The notes beneath the pieces are model-generated. The model saw nothing but the letters and a program-made list of their open reading frames with translations. It was not told the origin of the DNA and ran no database searches. A stretch of 8,953 nt of DNA from a virus. Lineage: Duplodnaviria > Heunggongvirae > Uroviricota > Caudoviricetes. The stretch is from IMG/VR virus record IMGVR_UViG_2778261177_000008, one strand, 5' to 3'. Within the stretch, counting starts at the first letter, position 1, and each line of letters opens with the position of its first letter. The translations under genes and the position numbers were made by a program. Below, piece after piece: positions 500 to 8,953 of the stretch.

Positions 500-847
500 T
501 CAGAACTCTTCGATGTTCCAGCCACCACCTGCTTTCTTTGGCTTAACCGTTACCCCGATGATTCGGAACGGATACTGATCTGCGGCGACTTTGGTTTTCA
601 CTCTGGCGTCATCGGTCCAGAATCCCCCTTTCACTTCGTGCAGCTCCATCTCGCCGGTGGCGAGCATCACAGCGAAATCGGGCGTATAGAACGTGTTATT
701 AGCTAACCGCATCTTGATACCCTCGAACCGATACCAGGCGATTTCCCCTGCACGTTTACGCTGCTCAAGGTGCTGGCAATACGCAGATTCTGTTTTGTTC
801 ATCTGGCCTGTTTTGAGTCGACCAAGAGCCTGTATCTGTTTTCTCAT
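500..847 (-). CDS. Small PD-(D/E)xK-type nuclease, possibly DUF1064-like (tentative)
   Basis: 115-aa ORF with ATG at 847-845 and SD AGGGG about 6 nt upstream. Carries a PD...(D/E)xK-like motif (YTPDF ... ELHEVK). Sits downstream of the P-like gene, where lambdoid phages carry nin-region recombination/resolvase genes. Family assignment is from memory. Confidence 0.55.
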   Translation of the reverse strand: MRKQIQALGRLKTGQMNKTESAYCQHLEQRKRAGEIAWYRFEGIKMRLANNTFYTPDFAVMLATGEMELHEVKGGFWTDDARVKTKVAADQYPFRIIGVTVKPKKAGGGWNIEEF

Positions 848-850
848 GAT

Positions 851-927
851 TTACCCCTGAGGTAATTAAAAACCACATAAGACACGAAATCAATAGATTT
901 TAGAATATTTTATTACCCAAAAGGTAA
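851..927 (-). promoter_or_regulatory. Promoter/operator module: two TTACC-N5-GGTAA palindromes flanking a -35-like TTGATT
   Basis: Perfect palindromes at 851-865 (TTACCcctgaGGTAA) and 913-927 (TTACCcaaaaGGTAA). On the minus strand the order is operator, 19 nt, TTGATT (plus 888-893), 22 nt, operator, then RBS and ATG of the 500..847 gene. An AT-rich -10-like TTTAAT lies 17 nt after the -35. Confidence 0.6.
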
Positions 928-964
928 TTATCGAGACGTAAAAAAATGCGCTATCGCGCTGGTA

Positions 965-2736: not shown

Positions 2737-2814
2737 TTTTTCCGCCCCTTTTTGTTATTGATATTGGCTATTTTGCACAATTGGAAAATTTGATCAACCA
2801 GATTTGGTTTTTTA

Positions 2815-2829
2815 TTACCTTTGAGGTAC
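2815..2829. promoter_or_regulatory. Isolated operator-like palindrome TTACCtttgaGGTAC (one arm imperfect)
   Basis: Member of the TTACC-N5-GGTAA family. On the minus strand it is followed after 17 nt by a -35-like TTGATC, upstream of the zinc-binding ORF. Confidence 0.45.
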
Positions 2830-2840
2830 GAATAGATATG

Positions 2841-2864
2841 AAAAGACCGCCGGATGGCGGTCTA
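2841..2864 (-). terminator. Putative intrinsic terminator downstream of the cro-like gene (tR1-like position)
   Basis: Inverted repeat AGACCGCC (2845-2852), loop GGAT, GGCGGTCT (2857-2864). On the minus-strand transcript the hairpin is followed by UUUU then CAUAUC. Lies about 20 nt past the cro-like stop codon (2885-2887). Confidence 0.55.
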
Positions 2865-2884
2865 CAGAGGGTTGTGGCTGGATA

Positions 2885-3115
2885 TCATGAGTAGAAGAAG
2901 TATGCCAGTTCTGCTTTTGAGCGCAGCCATTGTCTTGTTTTACAGGCTTTAAAAAGCCCATTCATCAATACCTTACCTGGCATTTTGCGCTTACCTGTTA
3001 AGTGAGTCTGGATATAGTGACTCGTCGTTCCGGCTTCCTGTGCGAAGGCTTCACGCTCATCCGGAGTAAGTGCAAGCCAGTGCTTTTTGAAATCAAAATG
3101 TCCGTTATCGCTCAT
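2885..3115 (-). CDS. Cro-like small HTH DNA-binding regulator
   Basis: 76-aa ORF with a helix-turn-helix-like segment (REAFAQEAGTTSHYIQTHLTGKRK). Transcribed divergently from the repressor gene across an operator-rich intergenic region and followed by a terminator, as for lambda cro. Confidence 0.6.
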   Translation of the reverse strand: MSDNGHFDFKKHWLALTPDEREAFAQEAGTTSHYIQTHLTGKRKMPGKVLMNGLFKACKTRQWLRSKAELAYFFYS

Positions 3116-3140
3116 AGCTATTGCCTGATATTTATTTCAG

Positions 3141-3214
3141 ATAATAAATATTCACCCATAAGGTAACAAAAATCAAGGATAGTTACCTATGAGGTGCATT
3201 TACCTGATGGGTAA
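3141..3214. promoter_or_regulatory. Divergent promoter/operator region (OR-like) between the cro-like and repressor genes
   Basis: Three operator-like palindromes: 3152-3166 (TCACCcataaGGTAA), 3183-3197 (TTACCtatgaGGTGC) and 3200-3214 (TTACCtgatgGGTAA, perfect). Centres are spaced 31 and 17 bp apart. Leftward promoter candidates on the minus strand: -35 TTGATT (plus 3171-3176) or TTGTTA (plus 3164-3169), with -10 TATTAT (plus 3141-3146). The site at 3152-3166 overlaps the -35/spacer. Confidence 0.6.
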
Positions 3215-3269
3215 TATTGCTTTAAATTGAATCATCTACTGATTCATATATGAGGCGATTTTCCAGAAA

Positions 3270-3854
3270 ATGAAAAGTATCCAGGACGTCCGCAGGCAAA
3301 ATCTCAACGACTTGATCGACCGTGAATTCAATGGTGTTCAGACGCGGATGGCAGAAAAACTTGGAACTCAGGCAAATCTGGTAAACCGCTGGGCTCTTGG
3401 CAAGAAGGTTATCGGCGACCAGGTTGCGCGAAAAATTGAAGCTGCCGCCAATAAACCCCGTAACTGGCTTGATATCGATCGCTCGCTTTCTCAGGAAGGT
3501 TTTCAGCCTGTCGGCCCAAGCGACATTGGCCAGCTGGCGGCTCACAACCTGGAACGCTGGATGAGCGAAAGCCGCGACCTTTCAACACAGGGAAAACTTC
3601 ACCGCGCATCCGGCGTAGCCCAGGTGACAATCAGCCGCCTGTTAAACAATGAGGTCAGCGTTTCCATTTCCACCCTGGAGAATGTTGCATCCGCATTCGG
3701 GCGTCACGGCTATGAATTACTGATTCACCCGCACGACCCTGCGACCATCAACTATGATCGCTCGCGCTACGCATTGTTACCCGAAACCGAGAAAGCAAAG
3801 ATCGAAAGTTACATTGAATTTGTCATCAACCAGAACGAAAAAAGCAAACAATAA
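3270..3854 (+). CDS. Putative prophage repressor (CI-equivalent) with two tandem HTH_XRE-type domains
   Basis: 194-aa ORF with two HTH-like segments (GVQTRMAEKLGTQANLVNRWALGKK and LHRASGVAQVTISRLLNNEVS). No recognisable LexA-like S24 peptidase domain. Sits between the operator cluster and a strong terminator, divergent from the cro-like gene. No good SD: GAGG is 14 nt upstream of the ATG. Confidence 0.7.
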   Translation: MKSIQDVRRQNLNDLIDREFNGVQTRMAEKLGTQANLVNRWALGKKVIGDQVARKIEAAANKPRNWLDIDRSLSQEGFQPVGPSDIGQLAAHNLERWMSESRDLSTQGKLHRASGVAQVTISRLLNNEVSVSISTLENVASAFGRHGYELLIHPHDPATINYDRSRYALLPETEKAKIESYIEFVINQNEKSKQ

Positions 3855-3874
3855 AACTATAGTTTTCAGCAAGT

Positions 3875-3898
3875 AAGCCGCCTCATGGCGGCTTTTTT
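3875..3898 (+). terminator. Rho-independent terminator after the repressor gene
   Basis: GC-rich 8-bp stem AAGCCGCC (3875-3882), loop TCAT, GGCGGCTT (3887-3894), running into TTTTTT (3893-3898). Lies 20 nt downstream of the repressor stop TAA (3852-3854). Confidence 0.75.
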
Positions 3899-3911
3899 AT
3901 TGCCAGATAGA

Positions 3912-3988
3912 TTACCTTACGGGTAATTTTTTTAACTCATATCTATTGACACCAAACCAAATAAGCATAATTATTACCTCAACGGTAA
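3912..3988 (+). promoter_or_regulatory. pL-like early-left promoter with two flanking operators
   Basis: Perfect palindromes at 3912-3926 (TTACCttacgGGTAA) and 3974-3988 (TTACCtcaacGGTAA), with consensus -35 TTGACA at 3946-3951. The -10 is AT-rich (AATTAT at 3969-3974 with a 17-nt spacer) and overlaps the second operator. A GGTAA half-site lies at 3996-4000. Spacing is operator, 19 nt, -35, 22 nt, operator. Confidence 0.65.
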
Positions 3989-4007
3989 CAAACCGAGGTA
4001 ACAAGTT

Positions 4008-4160
4008 ATGCAGTGGAAAATCATCAACGGTTGGTACTGCGTTACTGCATGCGGATTCATGAGCTGGAAGTTCCGCACCTTACAGGAAGGCATTAAGTGG
4101 GCTTTCGTCAGCAAAGAAGCTCGCGATGTGGCCAACGATAACGAGATATGGGAGGGCTGA
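4008..4160 (+). CDS. Small hypothetical protein (50 aa), first ORF of the early-left operon
   Basis: ATG at 4008 with GAGG 9 nt upstream; 50 codons, stop TGA at 4158-4160. Sequence MQWKIINGWYCVTACGFMSWKFRTLQEGIKWAFVSKEARDVANDNEIWEG is Trp-rich with a hydrophobic N-terminal segment. Too short for the ORF track. Not Arg-rich, so not N-like. Confidence 0.4.
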   Translation: MQWKIINGWYCVTACGFMSWKFRTLQEGIKWAFVSKEARDVANDNEIWEG

Positions 4161-4162
4161 TA

Positions 4163-4462
4163 ATGAACGTTAATCAGCAGAAAAATCTTCAAAAAATCAT
4201 GCTGGCATTCGACAAGGACTACCGTCTGTCAGAACAGCTATATGACCGACAAGTTGAACTGATTGAGAGTATCCGGCTTCATCAACTGGCATCAACTTTC
4301 GACGTTGTAACAGTTAAAGGCGTTCGCCAGGAAGTACTGGAGGCCGCTAAAGACAGCCCTGAGTTCGAAGAACTGATGGATTCCTACCGGCGCGAGGCAA
4401 TGGCAATTATCGCCCGCTGGGATCTGGCTGATCAGCTTGATGGGCAGAGGGACGCGGCATGA
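4163..4462 (+). CDS. Hypothetical phage protein (99 aa)
   Basis: ORF track starts at 4148, but ATG 4163 has a strong SD GGAGGG (4151-4156) and begins 2 nt after the upstream stop. The stop overlaps the exonuclease start (ATGA at 4459-4462). No family recognised. Confidence 0.55.
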   Translation: MNVNQQKNLQKIMLAFDKDYRLSEQLYDRQVELIESIRLHQLASTFDVVTVKGVRQEVLEAAKDSPEFEELMDSYRREAMAIIARWDLADQLDGQRDAA

Positions 4463-5280
4463 ATCCGGGAATTTATTTCGATATCAGCAACGAGGACTAC
4501 CACGCCGGTGACGGCGTGAGTAAGTCGCAGCTAGATATGGTGGCTAAGAACCCTGCCCTTCTGAAATGGGTGAAGGCTGCTCCGGAAGACGAAGAGAAGA
4601 AGTCTGCACTGGACATGGGTACTGCTCTGCACTGTCTGCTTCTGGAACCTGGAGAGTTTGACAAACGCTTCATCGTTTCACCGAAATTCGATCGTCGGAC
4701 AAAACAAGGTAAAGCTGACGAAGAGGCATTTATTCGTGATGTAGCGGATATGGGGATTTCGGTACTTGATGCAGAGCAGTGGCGAAAACTGGAGCTGATG
4801 CGTGATAGCGCAATGGCTCACCCGGCGGCACGCTGGATGTTGGAAGCACCTGGTTACTGCGAAGCATCAATGTACTGGAACGATGAAGAGACGGGTGAGT
4901 TGTGCCGAATTCGTCCAGACAAATGGCTGAACGAGCACAACGTGATCGTCGACGTGAAAAAGGTTGCAGATATGGACCGTTTTGCACGCCACATCGAGGA
5001 ATTCCGCTACCACGTGCAGGACGCAATGTACCGCGAAGGCGCAATGAGGGTTACTGGTCAGCCGCATGGTTTTTTCTTTCTTGCCGTGAGCGAAAGCATT
5101 GATTGTGGTCGGTATCCGGTACGCGTGTTCGAGCTGGATGCGCCAGATGTCGATGCTGGGCACGCTCTGTTCCGCCGGGATCTGAATACCTATCACGAAT
5201 GCCGCATCAACGATGAATGGGGCGGAGTGGAAATTATTAAACGCCCTGACTGGGCACGTAAACAGGATATGTACGTATGA
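4459..5280 (+). CDS. PD-(D/E)xK-family exonuclease (RecE / exodeoxyribonuclease VIII-like domain), recombination partner of the annealase
   Basis: 273-aa ORF. N-terminal GIYFDISNEDYHAGDGVSKSQLDMV and the motif IRPDKW...VIVDVKK are characteristic of the RecE-like PDDEXK exonuclease family found in prophages (from memory). Translationally coupled to the downstream annealase gene (ATGA at 5277-5280). SD GAGGGA about 8 nt upstream. Confidence 0.7.
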   Translation: MNPGIYFDISNEDYHAGDGVSKSQLDMVAKNPALLKWVKAAPEDEEKKSALDMGTALHCLLLEPGEFDKRFIVSPKFDRRTKQGKADEEAFIRDVADMGISVLDAEQWRKLELMRDSAMAHPAARWMLEAPGYCEASMYWNDEETGELCRIRPDKWLNEHNVIVDVKKVADMDRFARHIEEFRYHVQDAMYREGAMRVTGQPHGFFFLAVSESIDCGRYPVRVFELDAPDVDAGHALFRRDLNTYHECRINDEWGGVEIIKRPDWARKQDMYV

Positions 5281-6158
5281 GCAATGATATCGCAATCACA
5301 TCACAACCAGGCGCAACTGTAGGCACTGCTGCGGCAATCTTCAGCCCCGAGGGCATGAATCAACTGGTGCGTTTCGCGGAGTTGATGTCACAAAGCAAAG
5401 CGACTGTACCGAAACATCTTGAAGGCAAACCTGCCGATTGCCTGGCGGTGACCATGCAGGCGGCACAGTGGGGAATGAACCCTTTCGCCGTGGCGCAGAA
5501 AACGCATGTGGTAAACGGAACGTTAGGCTACGAAGCACAGTTGGTAAACGCGGTCGTATCCTCTTCCAGCCTGCTGGCGACACGCCTGAATTATCGCTGG
5601 AGCGGTGACTGGTCGAATGTTAACGGCAAAACAGATAAATCACCGAATCTGACGGTAACTGTGTCAGCAGTTCTTAAAGGAGAAGCAGAACCCCGTGAGC
5701 TTACCATCAGTATGGCGCAAGCCGGAGTGCGTAACTCTCCATTGTGGGAACAGGATCCGCGCCAGCAACTTGCCTATCTTTGCACGAAACGATGGGCTCG
5801 CCTGCACGCTCCTGATGTACTTCTCGGTGTTTACACCCCAGACGAATTACAGGAAACGGCACCGCGCGTTGAGCGAGACATTACTCCGCAAACGACCACT
5901 GCTGCGGGAATGAACAGTCTGATCAACGCTAAACCAGCGAAAAAGCCTGATGAGCAAACGCGTAAAGCGGATAGCCGTGATCCAGAAGAAATGCTGATGG
6001 CCTTTACCAGCGCAGCGATGAATTACAGCACTGTCTCCGAACTGGATAAGGCTTACAAATACATTGCACAAAAACTTTCAGATGATGACGAACTGCTGGC
6101 AAAAGCCACCGACGTTTACAGCGTTCGTCGGGAAGAATTAAACGAAACATCTATGTAA
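5277..6158 (+). CDS. Single-strand annealing recombinase, Bet/Red-beta-like
   Basis: 293-aa ORF. Shares with lambda Bet, as I recall it, the N-terminal pattern ...A.Q.G.NP... (CLAVTMQAAQWGMNPFAV) and the C-terminal ERDITP motif (VERDITPQ here, PERDITPV in Bet). Immediately follows, and is coupled to, the exonuclease gene. Confidence 0.75.
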   Translation: MSNDIAITSQPGATVGTAAAIFSPEGMNQLVRFAELMSQSKATVPKHLEGKPADCLAVTMQAAQWGMNPFAVAQKTHVVNGTLGYEAQLVNAVVSSSSLLATRLNYRWSGDWSNVNGKTDKSPNLTVTVSAVLKGEAEPRELTISMAQAGVRNSPLWEQDPRQQLAYLCTKRWARLHAPDVLLGVYTPDELQETAPRVERDITPQTTTAAGMNSLINAKPAKKPDEQTRKADSRDPEEMLMAFTSAAMNYSTVSELDKAYKYIAQKLSDDDELLAKATDVYSVRREELNETSM

Positions 6159-6207: not shown

Positions 6208-6456
6208 ATGAAAGGTGCATTAGGTAAGAAGGAACTCCTGGCGGTGGTGCCACTGTCATGGAGCACTATCGACCGTATGGAGCGCGCAGGGGAATTTCCT
6301 AAACGCTGGTATATCACCGATAAACGCTGCGCATGGAACCGTGATGAAGTTGAGCGTTGGCTTGATGAACGTCAGGCAGCAAGCCCGGCAGAGTTCCAGG
6401 GTAAAAAACCTCCTGTTCAGCAACGTGTATATCGTCCCGTGAGCAACGCGGCATGA
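6208..6456 (+). CDS. AlpA-family prophage regulatory protein / putative excisionase (MerR-like HTH)
   Basis: 82-aa ORF with SD AGAGAGG 5 nt upstream. The pattern LSWSTIDRMERAGEFPKRWYITDKRCAWNRDEVERWLDERQ fits the AlpA/Xis-like winged-helix family (FP+..........W...E...W...R). Lies between the recombination genes and the integrase side, as xis does in lambda. Confidence 0.7.
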   Translation: MKGALGKKELLAVVPLSWSTIDRMERAGEFPKRWYITDKRCAWNRDEVERWLDERQAASPAEFQGKKPPVQQRVYRPVSNAA

Positions 6457-6565: not shown

Positions 6566-6865
6566 GTGAGAAAGTTAAGCCGACTTGAAAAATATCACAT
6601 GAACAAGGTTTCAATGCGCAGTCCGTCAAAGATTGTCGCCGTTACTCCTGCGGCGATAGAGATCGAAAAACGCGCGATTGAAAGAGAGAAAAAAGGGCAG
6701 TTCCGCATTGCCGCTCACCTTTGGCTTCAGTGTATGGATGTTGCTTCTGGTGATGTTGAGCGTGCAAGGATCGCGGTTCGCAGGGACCAATGTATCACAA
6801 AAGGTAACGGCCTTCGCCGTGGCGACTATAGCGGCATAGGATGTTGTGGGGTGGTTTATGACTAA
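6566..6865 (+). CDS. Small regulatory protein, PerC-like (tentative)
   Basis: 99-aa ORF; GTG start at 6566 with GAGGG about 9 nt upstream (alternative ATG at 6599). The segment EKKGQFRIAAHLWLQCMDVA...ERARIAVRRDQCI resembles the PerC-family motif as I remember it (LE..G.WRRAA..W...M...RR..C); unverified. Stop TAA 6863-6865 overlaps the methyltransferase start. Confidence 0.4.
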   Translation: MRKLSRLEKYHMNKVSMRSPSKIVAVTPAAIEIEKRAIEREKKGQFRIAAHLWLQCMDVASGDVERARIAVRRDQCITKGNGLRRGDYSGIGCCGVVYD

Positions 6866-7508
6866 GAAATACACACTAATCTATGCAGATCCACCCTGGG
6901 TATACCGGGACAAAGCCGCAGATGGTAATCGCGGTGCCGGTTTTAAATATCCGGTTATGAGTGTGCTGGACATCTGCCGCCTTCCTGTGTGGGATTTGGC
7001 CGATGAAAACTGTCTGTTGGCCATGTGGTGGGTGCCAACACAACCACTCGAAGCACTTAAAGTTGTTGAAGCATGGGGATTCCGTCTGATGACCATGAAG
7101 GGCTTCACGTGGATAAAATGTGGTAGTCGACAACCAGATAAACTGGTTATGGGTATGGGTCACATGACTCGCGCCAATAGTGAAGATTGCCTGTTTGCGG
7201 TAAAGGGAAAACTACCTACGCGCATTAATGCAGGGATCGTTCAGTCATTTACCGCACCGCGGCTTGAGCATTCAAGAAAACCAGATATCGTTCGTGAAAA
7301 ACTTGTGCAATTGTTAGGCGATGTTTCTCGCATTGAACTGTTCGCCCGCCAGTCATCTCATGGTTTCGATGTTTGGGGTAATCAGTGCGAAGACCCGGCA
7401 GTGCAACTACATCCTGGATACGCGTTGGATATTGGCGGATTAACAAATGCATTCAGCAATGCTCCGCTGTCACCAACAGACAACCAGGGGCAGGAGCGTG
7501 CAGCATGA
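6858..7508 (+). CDS. MT-A70-family DNA N6-adenine methyltransferase (orphan, phage-type)
   Basis: The N-terminal YTLIYADPPW contains the canonical DPPW catalytic motif of N6-adenine methyltransferases, and the length and layout fit phage MT-A70 enzymes. Start is ATG 6858, or GTG 6846 as in the ORF track. No restriction endonuclease gene is adjacent. Stop TGA 7506-7508 overlaps the next ATG. Confidence 0.8.
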   Translation: MTKKYTLIYADPPWVYRDKAADGNRGAGFKYPVMSVLDICRLPVWDLADENCLLAMWWVPTQPLEALKVVEAWGFRLMTMKGFTWIKCGSRQPDKLVMGMGHMTRANSEDCLFAVKGKLPTRINAGIVQSFTAPRLEHSRKPDIVREKLVQLLGDVSRIELFARQSSHGFDVWGNQCEDPAVQLHPGYALDIGGLTNAFSNAPLSPTDNQGQERAA

Positions 7509-7702: not shown

Positions 7703-8953
7703 TTATTCCCCCGCCATCCACTTCTCAAACTTCGACGGGGAGAACGGAATCAGATCCGTATGCTCCCCGTTAATCCATGAATCAATCATATCGGCCCACT
7801 GCTGCAACATGTAGGCGCGCTGTCTGGCGTATTCCGCTTTGTTATATACGGCGCGCACACCTTTCTGCTCATGTGCCAGAGCCTTTTCAATCCAGTCTGA
7901 AGGATAACCAGCCTCATGCAACAACGTACTGGCTGTACGGCGCATATCGTGTACGGTGAAGTCCTGAATATGCTCACCATCTTCCTTTATTATTTTCACC
8001 GTTCTGTCGATCAGAGAGTTCAGCGCGGCATTAGATAATGGCTTCCGGAAGTTGTAACGACCAGGAACCAGATATTCACTTCCACCAGCGCACATCTGCA
8101 ACCCGACCAATATATCCTGTGCCTGTTTAGGCAGGTAAATAACGTGCGCCCGGCTTCCCTTCATGCGGTCTGAAGGAATTGTCCATGTCCATTTTTTAAA
8201 ATCTATTTCGTCCCACGTTGCATTGGTGAATTCGCCTTTACGAACCATAGTGATAAGCACCAGCTTTAAAGCCATTTTCATAGTGCCCATAGCACCAATG
8301 GCATCCAGCGTGCGGAAGAACAGGCCAATTTCTTCTGGTGTCAGTGTTCGCTCTCGTGGTTTAAATATGGCGATAGACGAAGGTTTAATGTCAGCCGCAG
8401 GATTAAACAAACCATGACCACGGTCATTGGCGTGACGGTATACGCTGCTGATGATCTCCCTGGCCTGCACTGCTGTTGCCCGGCCACCGCGTTCGACAAT
8501 CCGGTCACACAAATCACGAACCATCGATGTGGTAATTTCAGCCATCATTTTGTTGCCAAGAACCGGAAGTATGTCACGGTCGATCACTGCCTGCTTCATT
8601 GCGCGGGTACTTTCAGCCAGGATGACGTGTTTCATATAACTGTCGGTATGTACCGCAAACGTCTCGGCACCACGAATCTTTTTTATACCGTCACGTTTAG
8701 CCGCAGCCGGTGACTGGCCTGCTTTAAGCAGCTTCTTTGCAGCAATCAGTTCTTCTCGCGCTTCTGCCAGGCTGATACCGTCACTCCCATACTGCCCGAT
8801 TACCAGCGTTTCGCGGCGACCGTTGATACGGTAGTCGTAGCGAAACGAGACCGTGCCTGACGTAAGCACAGCTACATACAGCCCATCACGATCGGAGACC
8901 TTGTACAGTTTGTCCTGCGGCTTGAGGTTTTTTAATTTTGTATCGGTAAGCAC
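7703..8953 (-). CDS. int: Tyrosine recombinase / integrase, P4 (CP4-57 IntA-like) family; 5' end at or just beyond the window edge
   Basis: 416 codons, open to the window end. The N-terminal LTDTKLKNLKPQDKLYKVSDRDGLYVAVLTSG matches the arm-binding domain of P4-type integrases. The C-terminal region has the HxxR box (HDMRRT) and conserved Tyr-containing region of tyrosine recombinases. The first codon in the window is GTG, so a few N-terminal residues probably lie outside. Confidence 0.9.
   Translation of the reverse strand: MLTDTKLKNLKPQDKLYKVSDRDGLYVAVLTSGTVSFRYDYRINGRRETLVIGQYGSDGISLAEAREELIAAKKLLKAGQSPAAAKRDGIKKIRGAETFAVHTDSYMKHVILAESTRAMKQAVIDRDILPVLGNKMMAEITTSMVRDLCDRIVERGGRATAVQAREIISSVYRHANDRGHGLFNPAADIKPSSIAIFKPRERTLTPEEIGLFFRTLDAIGAMGTMKMALKLVLITMVRKGEFTNATWDEIDFKKWTWTIPSDRMKGSRAHVIYLPKQAQDILVGLQMCAGGSEYLVPGRYNFRKPLSNAALNSLIDRTVKIIKEDGEHIQDFTVHDMRRTASTLLHEAGYPSDWIEKALAHEQKGVRAVYNKAEYARQRAYMLQQWADMIDSWINGEHTDLIPFSPSKFEKWMAGE

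Follow-up and report, generated by a model that had tools for sequence, protein, structure and literature searches.

Introduction

Among the closest known counterparts of the system treated here are the repressor Rep of the Salmonella phage SPC32H and the repressor sites recorded for phage ε15. We compared them with a predicted operator and promoter module at positions 851-927 (minus strand) of the IMG/VR virus record IMGVR_UViG_2778261177_000008. The whole stretch of DNA that was analysed, 8,953 bp in length, is called the window throughout. The Rep-Ant lysis-lysogeny switch of SPC32H (PDB 5D50/5D4Z) was reportedly worked out by Kim & Ryu in 2013 and by Kim et al. in 2016. According to PMC9638917, SPC32H Rep is a tetramer that binds to palindromic DNA and whose DNA-binding pairs form across dimers; it is released by the tetrameric antirepressor Ant without cleavage. 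The tetramerisation domain has a fold linked to DNA looping, and the paired domains are about 100 Å apart, as stated in PMC9986798. In phage ZX5, over-expression of the repressor lowered the endolysin and holin transcripts by more than 99.9%; the paper defines no operators (PMC9782041).

For ε15, the RefSeq record NC_004775.2 carries features labelled 'protein_bind / repressor / lysogeny' at 12-27, 2931-2947, 19895-19911, 32479-32494, 32554-32570, 32616-32632 and 35906-35922. The records of phiV10 and ZX5 have no operator annotation. The ε15 annotation is said to stem from a study by Kropinski et al. in 2007. As far as could be checked, the annotated sites are predictions and not footprints.

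The window is the early region, from the integrase to the accessory genes, of a temperate podophage of the ε15/phiV10 type (genus Uetakevirus). It is 98% identical to Escherichia phage vB_EcoP_ZX5 across 98% of its length, about 96-97% identical to TL-2011b and phiV10 and about 80% identical to the Salmonella phages SPN1S and SPC32H. Of 5,426 complete E. coli genomes, 622 contained related sequence. An earlier interpretation of the window, made without database searches and called the sequence-only reading here, had regarded 851-927 as a mirror-image copy of a pL-type module at 3912-3988. It had suggested that the immunity repressor directly controls a third early promoter for nin-type genes, which phage lambda reaches by N antitermination from pR. 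We followed up this proposal by computational analysis.

A predicted promoter between two operators downstream of the replication genes

The reading that we favour, with a probability of about 0.72, is that 851-927 forms a self-contained boundary between transcription units: a weak terminator would be followed by a promoter for the resolvase and accessory genes that is bracketed by Rep, with bridging or looping by Rep and release by Ant. On the minus strand the order of elements is the stop codon of a lambda P-like gene (965), a hairpin (959-940), about 9 variable nt, the distal operator (927-913), an A/T-rich tract, CTATTGATT with the -35 hexamer (893-888), a 17-bp spacer, TTTAAT (870-865), the proximal operator (865-851) and the ATG (847) of a gene for a DUF1064 protein. 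The pL-type module has the same order of elements behind the strong terminator of rep (3875-3894, plus strand; -19 kcal/mol, z = -4.6).

Both predicted Rep operators, the distal one at 913-927 (TTACCCAAAAGGTAA on the plus strand) and the proximal one at 851-865 (TTACCCCTGAGGTAA on the plus strand), are perfect matches to TTACC-N5-GGTAA. The centre of the distal operator is located about 62 bp upstream of the predicted start site. The proximal operator begins to overlap the -10 hexamer at the last base of the latter and also covers the predicted start site together with the Shine-Dalgarno sequence GGGG (854-858). The -35 hexamer TTGATT (888-893, minus strand) is part of a conserved CTATTGA and aligns with TTGACA of the pL-type promoter. 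At a distance of 17 bp follows the candidate -10 TTTAAT (865-870, minus strand), which is preceded by a conserved TGTGG, aligns with AATTAT of the pL-type promoter and reads TTAAAT in Salmonella phages. The two hexamers match the consensus at 4/6 and 5/6 positions. The terminator-like hairpin GCGC-GAUA-GCGC, followed by A and U7 (940-959, minus strand), has a 4-bp GC stem with about -6.6 kcal/mol, stands directly behind the stop codon of the P-like gene and is annotated as a putative rho-independent terminator in the phiV10 RefSeq record. No transcription start site data for these phages were found in the literature searched.

Two other candidates within the module were rejected. A promoter-like match on the plus strand, AAGACA-16-TAGAAT (879-906), is not conserved in Salmonella phages and was judged a chance match. 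ATCTATT was considered as a separate motif, but occurs 4 times in the ZX5 genome vs 2.4 expected, and the ZX5 module has CTCTATTGA; we treated it as context of the -35 element only.

Common architecture of the two modules

An ungapped alignment of the reverse complement of 851-927 with 3912-3988 confirmed the identical layout that had been described for them. Both modules comprise 77 nt and consist of an operator (15 nt), 19 nt, the -35 element (6 nt), 22 nt and a second operator (15 nt). The operators of both follow the motif TTACC-N5-GGTAA and the -35 elements the motif TTGAYW. The operators start 62 bp apart in both cases (851/913 and 3912/3974), also in agreement with the earlier description. 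Between the modules, the operators are identical at 13/15 positions at each end and the -35 hexamers at 4/6 (TTGATT vs TTGACA), and ATCTA precedes the -35 in both. The string TAATTACCTCA, quoted as shared by both, is exact for the module at 851, whereas the module at 3912 has TTATTACCTCA; the string truly common to both is ATTACCTCA.

We scanned the window for the palindrome TTACCNNNNNGGTAA, allowing at most one mismatch, with 200 shuffles as control. Seven matches were obtained vs 0.17 expected, and none of the 200 shuffles got to seven. A further operator copy with two mismatches is present at 3176-3190. In an independent repeat search, the highest-ranking inverted repeat of the window was 890-928 / 3911-3949, which corresponds to the distal half of each module. 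The segments between the operators are identical at 22 of 47 positions, compared with 15.0 +/- 2.95 in shuffled sequences (P = 0.015). The modules share the contiguous 9-mer ATCTATTGA, and nearly all of the excess identity between the operators is due to it. Since this identity is modest and its excess confined almost completely to ATCTATTGA, the modules are not duplicates of one sequence; they have a common architecture, or grammar. That 851-927 would be a copy of the pL-type module is also contradicted by TATGTGGTT, which stands just upstream of its -10 and is absent from the pL-type module.

The TATGTGGTT element was seen at further locations. It stands just upstream of the -10 at 871-879 of the window. 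Counting versions with one mismatch, it was noted at 2469, 5899, 16157 and 22814 in ZX5 and at 2990, 24753 and 35955 in ε15. Outside the module treated here, exact copies are upstream of tail-fibre and head genes in ZX5 and of head and lysis genes in ε15, each on the coding strand and 46-58 bp after a Rep operator. Versions with one mismatch were found before the lysis cassette of ZX5 and, as TTTGTGGTT, in the ε15 copy of the module downstream of the replication genes. TATGTGGTT is possibly an extended -10 (TGTGg) element of a promoter class common with late genes.

Conservation of the operator pair

The operator pair downstream of the replication genes was found at 2642/2704 in SPC32H (cassette 2642-2718), at 16109/16171 in ZX5 and at 35907/35969 in ε15, with a distance of 62 bp in all three phages. 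Their pL-type pairs are likewise exactly 62 bp apart. In prophages of Erwinia dacicola, Klebsiella pneumoniae, Citrobacter werkmanii and C. braakii the pair downstream of the replication genes is spaced by 62 bp, in a Scandinavium prophage by 61 bp, and the pL-type pairs of these five by 61-63 bp. Across seven genera, the spacing was 61-63 bp, mostly 62, in both modules. An alignment of eight taxa showed the GCGC...GCGC stem, T7AC, both pairs of half-sites, GGTAATA, CTATTGA, a GG and the A/T block ahead of the proximal operator and the ATG to be invariant, while the rest, including the hairpin loop, drifts.

The module is retained in different surroundings. The gene behind the cassette encodes either the DUF1064 protein or a non-homologous RuvC-like resolvase (ε15, Erwinia, C. 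werkmanii). The replication cassette before it comes in at least three alternatives among the E. coli phages, in a mosaic with sharp breakpoints at about 1495 and 2792. Among phages with 99-100% identical repressors, the segment 1495-2792 is swapped for at least two other cassettes, and 400-1495 and 2792-4462 remain 94-98% identical. The swapped segment comprises the DnaT-like gene, an open reading frame (ORF) of 70 amino acids (aa) and that part of the P-like gene which encodes the N-terminus.

For E. coli we collected 80 IMG/VR loci with 99-100% identical Rep, 78 of them with enough flanking sequence. The operator pair was present in 77 of these 78. In the sole exception, IMGVR_UViG_2778261300_000004, only about 3.5 kb separate rep from the terminase operators. 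This points to the loss of the replication and accessory genes by deletion and perhaps to a defective prophage. Nucleotide diversity (pi) was determined for 73 loci aligned by MAFFT. The half-sites of the four module operators had a pi of 0.004, compared with 0.006 for codon positions 1+2 and 0.070 for four-fold degenerate sites, and the 47-bp segments between the operators had values of 0.04-0.05. By these values, purifying selection acts on the half-sites as strongly as it does on protein sequence.

In the annotated genome of ε15, the site at 35906-35922 is located between the replication gene gp42 and the resolvase gene gp43. It aligns column for column with 913-927 of the window and is its positional orthologue. 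The annotated pair 32554/32616 is the orthologue of 3912/3974. The record omits the proximal operator at 35969-35983 and three OR sites (33341-33402), though all of them match the motif with at most one mismatch. Conservation, purifying selection on the half-sites and orthology to ε15 strongly support the core of the sequence-only reading, namely that the repressor would directly control a separate promoter downstream of the replication genes, although the proposal was incomplete and the promoter is neither the third one nor a copy of pL.

The repressor

The 194-aa repressor encoded in the window (3270-3854, plus strand) matches SPC32H Rep (5D50_A) over residues 1-190 in a phmmer search (E = 3.5e-42). 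It shares 43% identity with the repressors of SPC32H and ε15, and the motif NLVNRW is conserved in the N-terminal domain. Pfam detected two helix-turn-helix (HTH)-like domains only, and no S24 cleavage domain. The lambda frame of the sequence-only reading was misleading in this respect: the repressor is of the SPC32H Rep type, which is tetrameric, has two HTH-like domains without an S24 domain and is released by an antirepressor. By homology to SPC32H Rep, the repressor of the window is probably a tetramer with two DNA-binding units. It presumably binds all operators of the window. Full-length Rep relatives were found in Erwinia, Klebsiella, Citrobacter, Scandinavium and Salmonella, and the half-sites were the same in all of them. 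For more distant relatives, whose match is limited to the N-terminal domain of Rep (Paraburkholderia, Hydrogenovibrio, Thiomicrospira), no enriched palindrome family was seen.

Predicted course of regulation

According to the favoured reading, transcription from pR would run through the cro-like and replication genes and meet the short, weak terminator behind the P-like gene. A sigma-70-type promoter (CTATTGATT, 17 bp, TTTAAT) would read into the DUF1064 resolvase gene and the accessory (Ea/nin-like) genes. Rep at the proximal operator would occlude the edge of the -10, the start site and the ribosome-binding site. The distal operator, about 62 bp upstream, would be on the same face of the DNA because the distance corresponds to six helical turns, and would add cooperativity through bridging by the Rep tetramer. 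In the lysogen, Rep on both sites would shut the promoter; most likely a single tetramer, or cooperating tetramers, would bridge the operators and clamp the 47-bp promoter segment in a small loop. On DNA damage, the antirepressor Ant would strip Rep from the DNA, and the promoter would fire together with the leftward and rightward early promoters. With a promoter of their own that fires simultaneously with the early promoters, these genes would thus need no N-type antitermination. The absence of an N-like gene, which had been pointed out before, was borne out: no N-like or antiterminator family matched any of the early ORFs in Pfam and PHROG, and Rfam found no known RNA elements, including antitermination RNA, in the window. 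The sequence data show the motif and its geometry, the conservation and selection and the homology of the repressor; from these we infer Rep binding at both sites, the promoter with its start point and the bridging or looping.

Evaluation of alternative explanations

Several observations weigh against the favoured reading. The predicted -10 (TTTAAT or TTAAAT) has no A at the key position -11, and because of this the promoter was not listed by the consensus promoter scan. A leader of no more than about 12 nt is predicted, and the Shine-Dalgarno sequence occupies its extreme 5' end. With its 4-bp stem and z values of -1.6 and -0.3, the upstream hairpin is weak; read-through from pR therefore probably contributes to the expression of the downstream genes and may account for much of it. 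That one tetramer forms a loop is pure inference, and 62 bp would make a very short one. The structural mechanism of repression by SPC32H Rep 'has not been extensively characterized', as PMC9986798 puts it. All relatives found have the same half-sites, which leaves no variation in which repressor and operator could covary.

The weak hairpin, which makes read-through plausible, and the poor -10 of a promoter not called by the scan would also fit a roadblock or insulator without a promoter. Rep-bound operators and the weak terminator would then stop read-through in the lysogen, and the resolvase and accessory genes would be transcribed in the lytic cycle solely from pR. In ZX5, no promoter would fit between the operators at 19625 and 19643 and the ATG at 19660; some sites in this phage type may therefore well act on elongating polymerase. 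For 851-927 we consider this unlikely: CTATTGA and the A/T-rich -10 block keep fixed distances from both operators and are invariant in the eight taxa, which a pure roadblock would not need; the 47-bp segment between the operators is below neutral diversity (pi 0.05 vs 0.07); and the same grammar includes a promoter with a 10/12 consensus match in the pL-type module. The promoter might also be a different one. The only promoter-like match of the scan on the minus strand of the module was TCGATA-16-TAAAAT (934-907), which matches the consensus at 9/12 positions with an A at -11 and a T at -7. It would have the distal operator as its spacer and a leader of about 60 nt, better suited to translation, that contains the proximal operator. 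It might be used by itself or, in tandem, together with the TTGATT promoter. Its TAAAAT belongs to GGTAATAAAAT, which is conserved in most taxa, but this A/T tract is equally well explained as an UP-like element of the TTGATT promoter. The -35 is in a hypervariable flank and is not conserved (TCGATA, TCAACA, TATATG, CAATGA and others), and the pL-type module has a T-run and no counterpart there, which makes this promoter quite unlikely as the active one.

Two further explanations concern the operators themselves. The pair could mainly serve as a long-range anchor for looping, which stabilises Rep at OR/OL about 2.3 kb away in the manner of the OL-OR octamer loop of lambda. SPC32H Rep tetramers pack as octamers in the crystal, according to PMC9986798, and most relatives have the pair at about 2.3-2.7 kb from OR. 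This distance just mirrors the gene content, with 3.4 kb in Scandinavium, and the proximal operator is locked on the start site and the Shine-Dalgarno sequence in every taxon, so we regard a mainly long-range function as very improbable; it would be compatible with a local role at the promoter, as the two are not mutually exclusive. Apart from the operators and ATCTATTGA, the similarity of the two modules does not exceed that of shuffled sequences, as would be expected if their resemblance was due to chance or if 851-927 was a non-functional relic of a pL duplication. Given that none of the 200 shuffles got to the observed motif count, that the spacing is fixed in seven genera and that the half-sites are under strong purifying selection, there is hardly any probability left for this.

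Hypervariable distal operators

In both distal operators, the 5-bp spacer and about 8-10 bp of the flank on the terminator side (912-937 and 3903-3922) are hypervariable between E. coli prophages that are otherwise nearly identical. The module downstream of the replication genes occurs in 67 distinct sequences among the 78 E. coli copies together with SPC32H, ZX5 and ε15, without indels in the E. coli copies. In the 73 aligned loci, a 15-bp window from 918 had 45 haplotypes vs a block median of 4, and one from 3906 had 24 vs a median of 3. The two distal operators had 33 and 13 distinct spacers, compared with 2-9 in all other operator classes. Mean pi in the hypervariable patches was 0.32-0.34, about 4.7 times the four-fold degenerate value (0.070), and the half-sites were invariant. 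All changes in the patches are substitutions and none are indels. Even when the 150-bp flanks of two loci are identical, 6 of 26 positions can be different. Relaxed constraint by itself seems insufficient to explain this variability.

These data leave room for a more speculative and on the whole doubtful interpretation. The 62-bp pair might be a phase-locked 'promoter clamp', closed by one Rep tetramer that loops out the 47 bp, and reused at two early promoters, with the distal operators as tuning knobs whose non-contacted spacer and flank vary by diversifying selection or local hypermutation. The promoter would be a hybrid of an early-type -35 and a late-type TGTGG element next to the -10. 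If the distal operators were such tuning knobs, closely related prophages would differ in the ease with which each unit is derepressed.

Other operator sites

In the pL-type module (3912-3988, plus strand), the operators are located at 3912-3926 and 3974-3988, the -35 TTGACA at 3946-3951 and the -10 AATTAT at 3969-3974, and the promoter matches the consensus at 10/12 positions. In the leader of this promoter (3971-4004), TTACCTC, a part of the proximal operator, can pair with GAGGTAA, in which the first leftward gene has its Shine-Dalgarno sequence. In the scan, this pairing came up as a hairpin of 13 pairs on the opposite strand, and it might influence how the 50-aa ORF is translated.

The OR operators are found at 3152-3166 (1 mismatch), 3176-3190 (2 mismatches) and 3200-3214, spaced by 24 bp. 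The rep-proximal one (3200-3214) has the spacer TGATG in the window. Since 80 of 81 related loci have TGTTG, the window carries a rare variant at this position.

A single operator with one mismatch, TTACCTTTGAGGTAC, is located at 2815-2829, just behind the terminator of the cro-like gene (2844-2863). Next to it on the minus strand comes the candidate promoter TTGATC-17-AAAATA, ahead of the 70-aa ORF and the replication genes. This arrangement of terminator, operator and promoter (2736-2885) is also kept in SPC32H. Counting the promoter downstream of the replication genes as the third had thus missed a fourth operator location, and there are about 14 sites genome-wide in this phage type. In ZX5, a genome scan revealed about 14 operator sites: close to the antirepressor/tail-fibre region, before the integrase gene, in OL and OR, after the cro-like gene, in the module downstream of the replication genes, ahead of the head genes and directly ahead of the terminase gene. 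The ε15 set is similar. At 19585-19660 of ZX5, a terminator and the operators at 19625 and 19643 precede the ATG of the small terminase gene (19660) without space for a promoter. The late genes of ZX5 may be reached by read-through, with Rep as a roadblock before the terminase gene.

Gene layout of the window

Gene functions were assigned by matches of the ORFs to Pfam and PHROG profiles. Leftmost on the minus strand is an Ea-like gene, which extends up to about 438. It is followed by the first gene of the regulated unit (500-847, minus strand), whose 115-aa product matches Pfam DUF1064 and PHROG 190 'Holliday junction resolvase' (E = 8.8e-43); it is likely a Holliday-junction resolvase or nuclease. 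Beyond the module at 851-927, the minus strand has the lambda P-like replication gene (965-1741; Pfam Phage_lambda_P, E = 5.3e-55), which is the last gene of the upstream (pR) unit, the DnaT-like initiator gene (1713-2561), the 70-aa ORF (2524-2736), the single operator at 2815-2829, a strong terminator (2844-2863) and the cro-like gene (2885-3115) before this terminator in the direction of transcription. Inside the DnaT-like gene, two 28-bp direct repeats (2159-2186 and 2368-2395) are 89% identical and 209 bp apart. Each of them holds the palindrome GTAACGC-N5-GCGTTAC, and they are candidates for origin or initiator-binding repeats.

The OR region (3152-3214) separates the cro-like gene from rep. 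On the plus strand, rep and its terminator are followed by the pL-type module, two small ORFs (4008-4462) and genes for an exonuclease (4459-5280), RecT (5277-6158), an AlpA/excisionase-like protein (6208-6456), a PerC-like activator (6566-6865) and an adenine methylase (6846-7508). The integrase gene (7703-8953) is on the minus strand.

Discussion

Our results indicate how a prophage family that is common in E. coli and Salmonella may silence and release its early genes, with one antirepressor-sensitive tetrameric repressor for all units. They also provide a rule for the annotation of records of the phiV10 type, TTACC-N5-GGTAA in pairs 62 bp apart. The strictly kept spacing leads to a concrete prediction about bridging by the Rep tetramer, and together with the hypervariable distal operators it is the part most worth follow-up.

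One of the closest counterparts is ε15, whose repressor is homologous and whose sites have the same hyphenated palindrome of 15-17 bp (ATTACC-N5-GGTAAT). In the ε15 record, the pair downstream of the replication genes is represented by its distal site only, and neither a promoter nor a spacing rule is given. As the orthologous distal site was already present in this record, the novelty of the module had been overstated and our finding is largely a confirmation. As far as could be checked, there appears to be no earlier record of the proximal operator of this pair, of annotated operators in the E. coli phages of the group or of the strict 62-bp rule. SPC32H, with a full-length homologue of Rep, has the same cassette with 62-bp spacing; the secondary sources consulted on this phage deal with the switch and the protein architecture and not with a promoter downstream of replication.

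Two operators that bracket a promoter in helical phase are also found at gal (OE/OI), at lac (O1/O3) and for Rco of pLS20, where the operators are 75 bp apart; here 62 bp correspond to about 5.9 turns. These systems likewise have a tetrameric repressor with two separated DNA-binding pairs, and both Rep and Rco have the TetDloop fold according to PMC9986798. The loop formed by Rep would differ in being unusually short, and looping may not be required at all, since one of the operators directly occludes the predicted start site.

The gene order resembles that of lambda, with the repressor gene between divergent early promoters, a cro-like gene, replication genes and then recombination or nin-type genes. 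In lambda, three adjacent operators overlap each promoter, whereas here the operators flank the promoter at a distance of 62 bp. CI of lambda is cleavable in a RecA-dependent manner, and nin is reached by N-dependent read-through; in the window no cleavage domain and no N-like function were detected. Unlike in lambda, each unit here starts with its own cassette of terminator, operator and promoter.

Dispersed repressor sites are known from the 'stoperators' of mycobacteriophage L5 and the CB sites of N15, PY54 and phiKO2. As in these phages, one repressor with many sites across the genome would silence several transcription units directly. This phage group is already known to rely on direct control by a repressor from dispersed sites, and the 'third early promoter' is a single example of such control. 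The L5 stoperators are asymmetric, depend on orientation and act on elongation inside transcribed regions, whereas the operators described here are symmetric and, in the module downstream of the replication genes, would act on a promoter.

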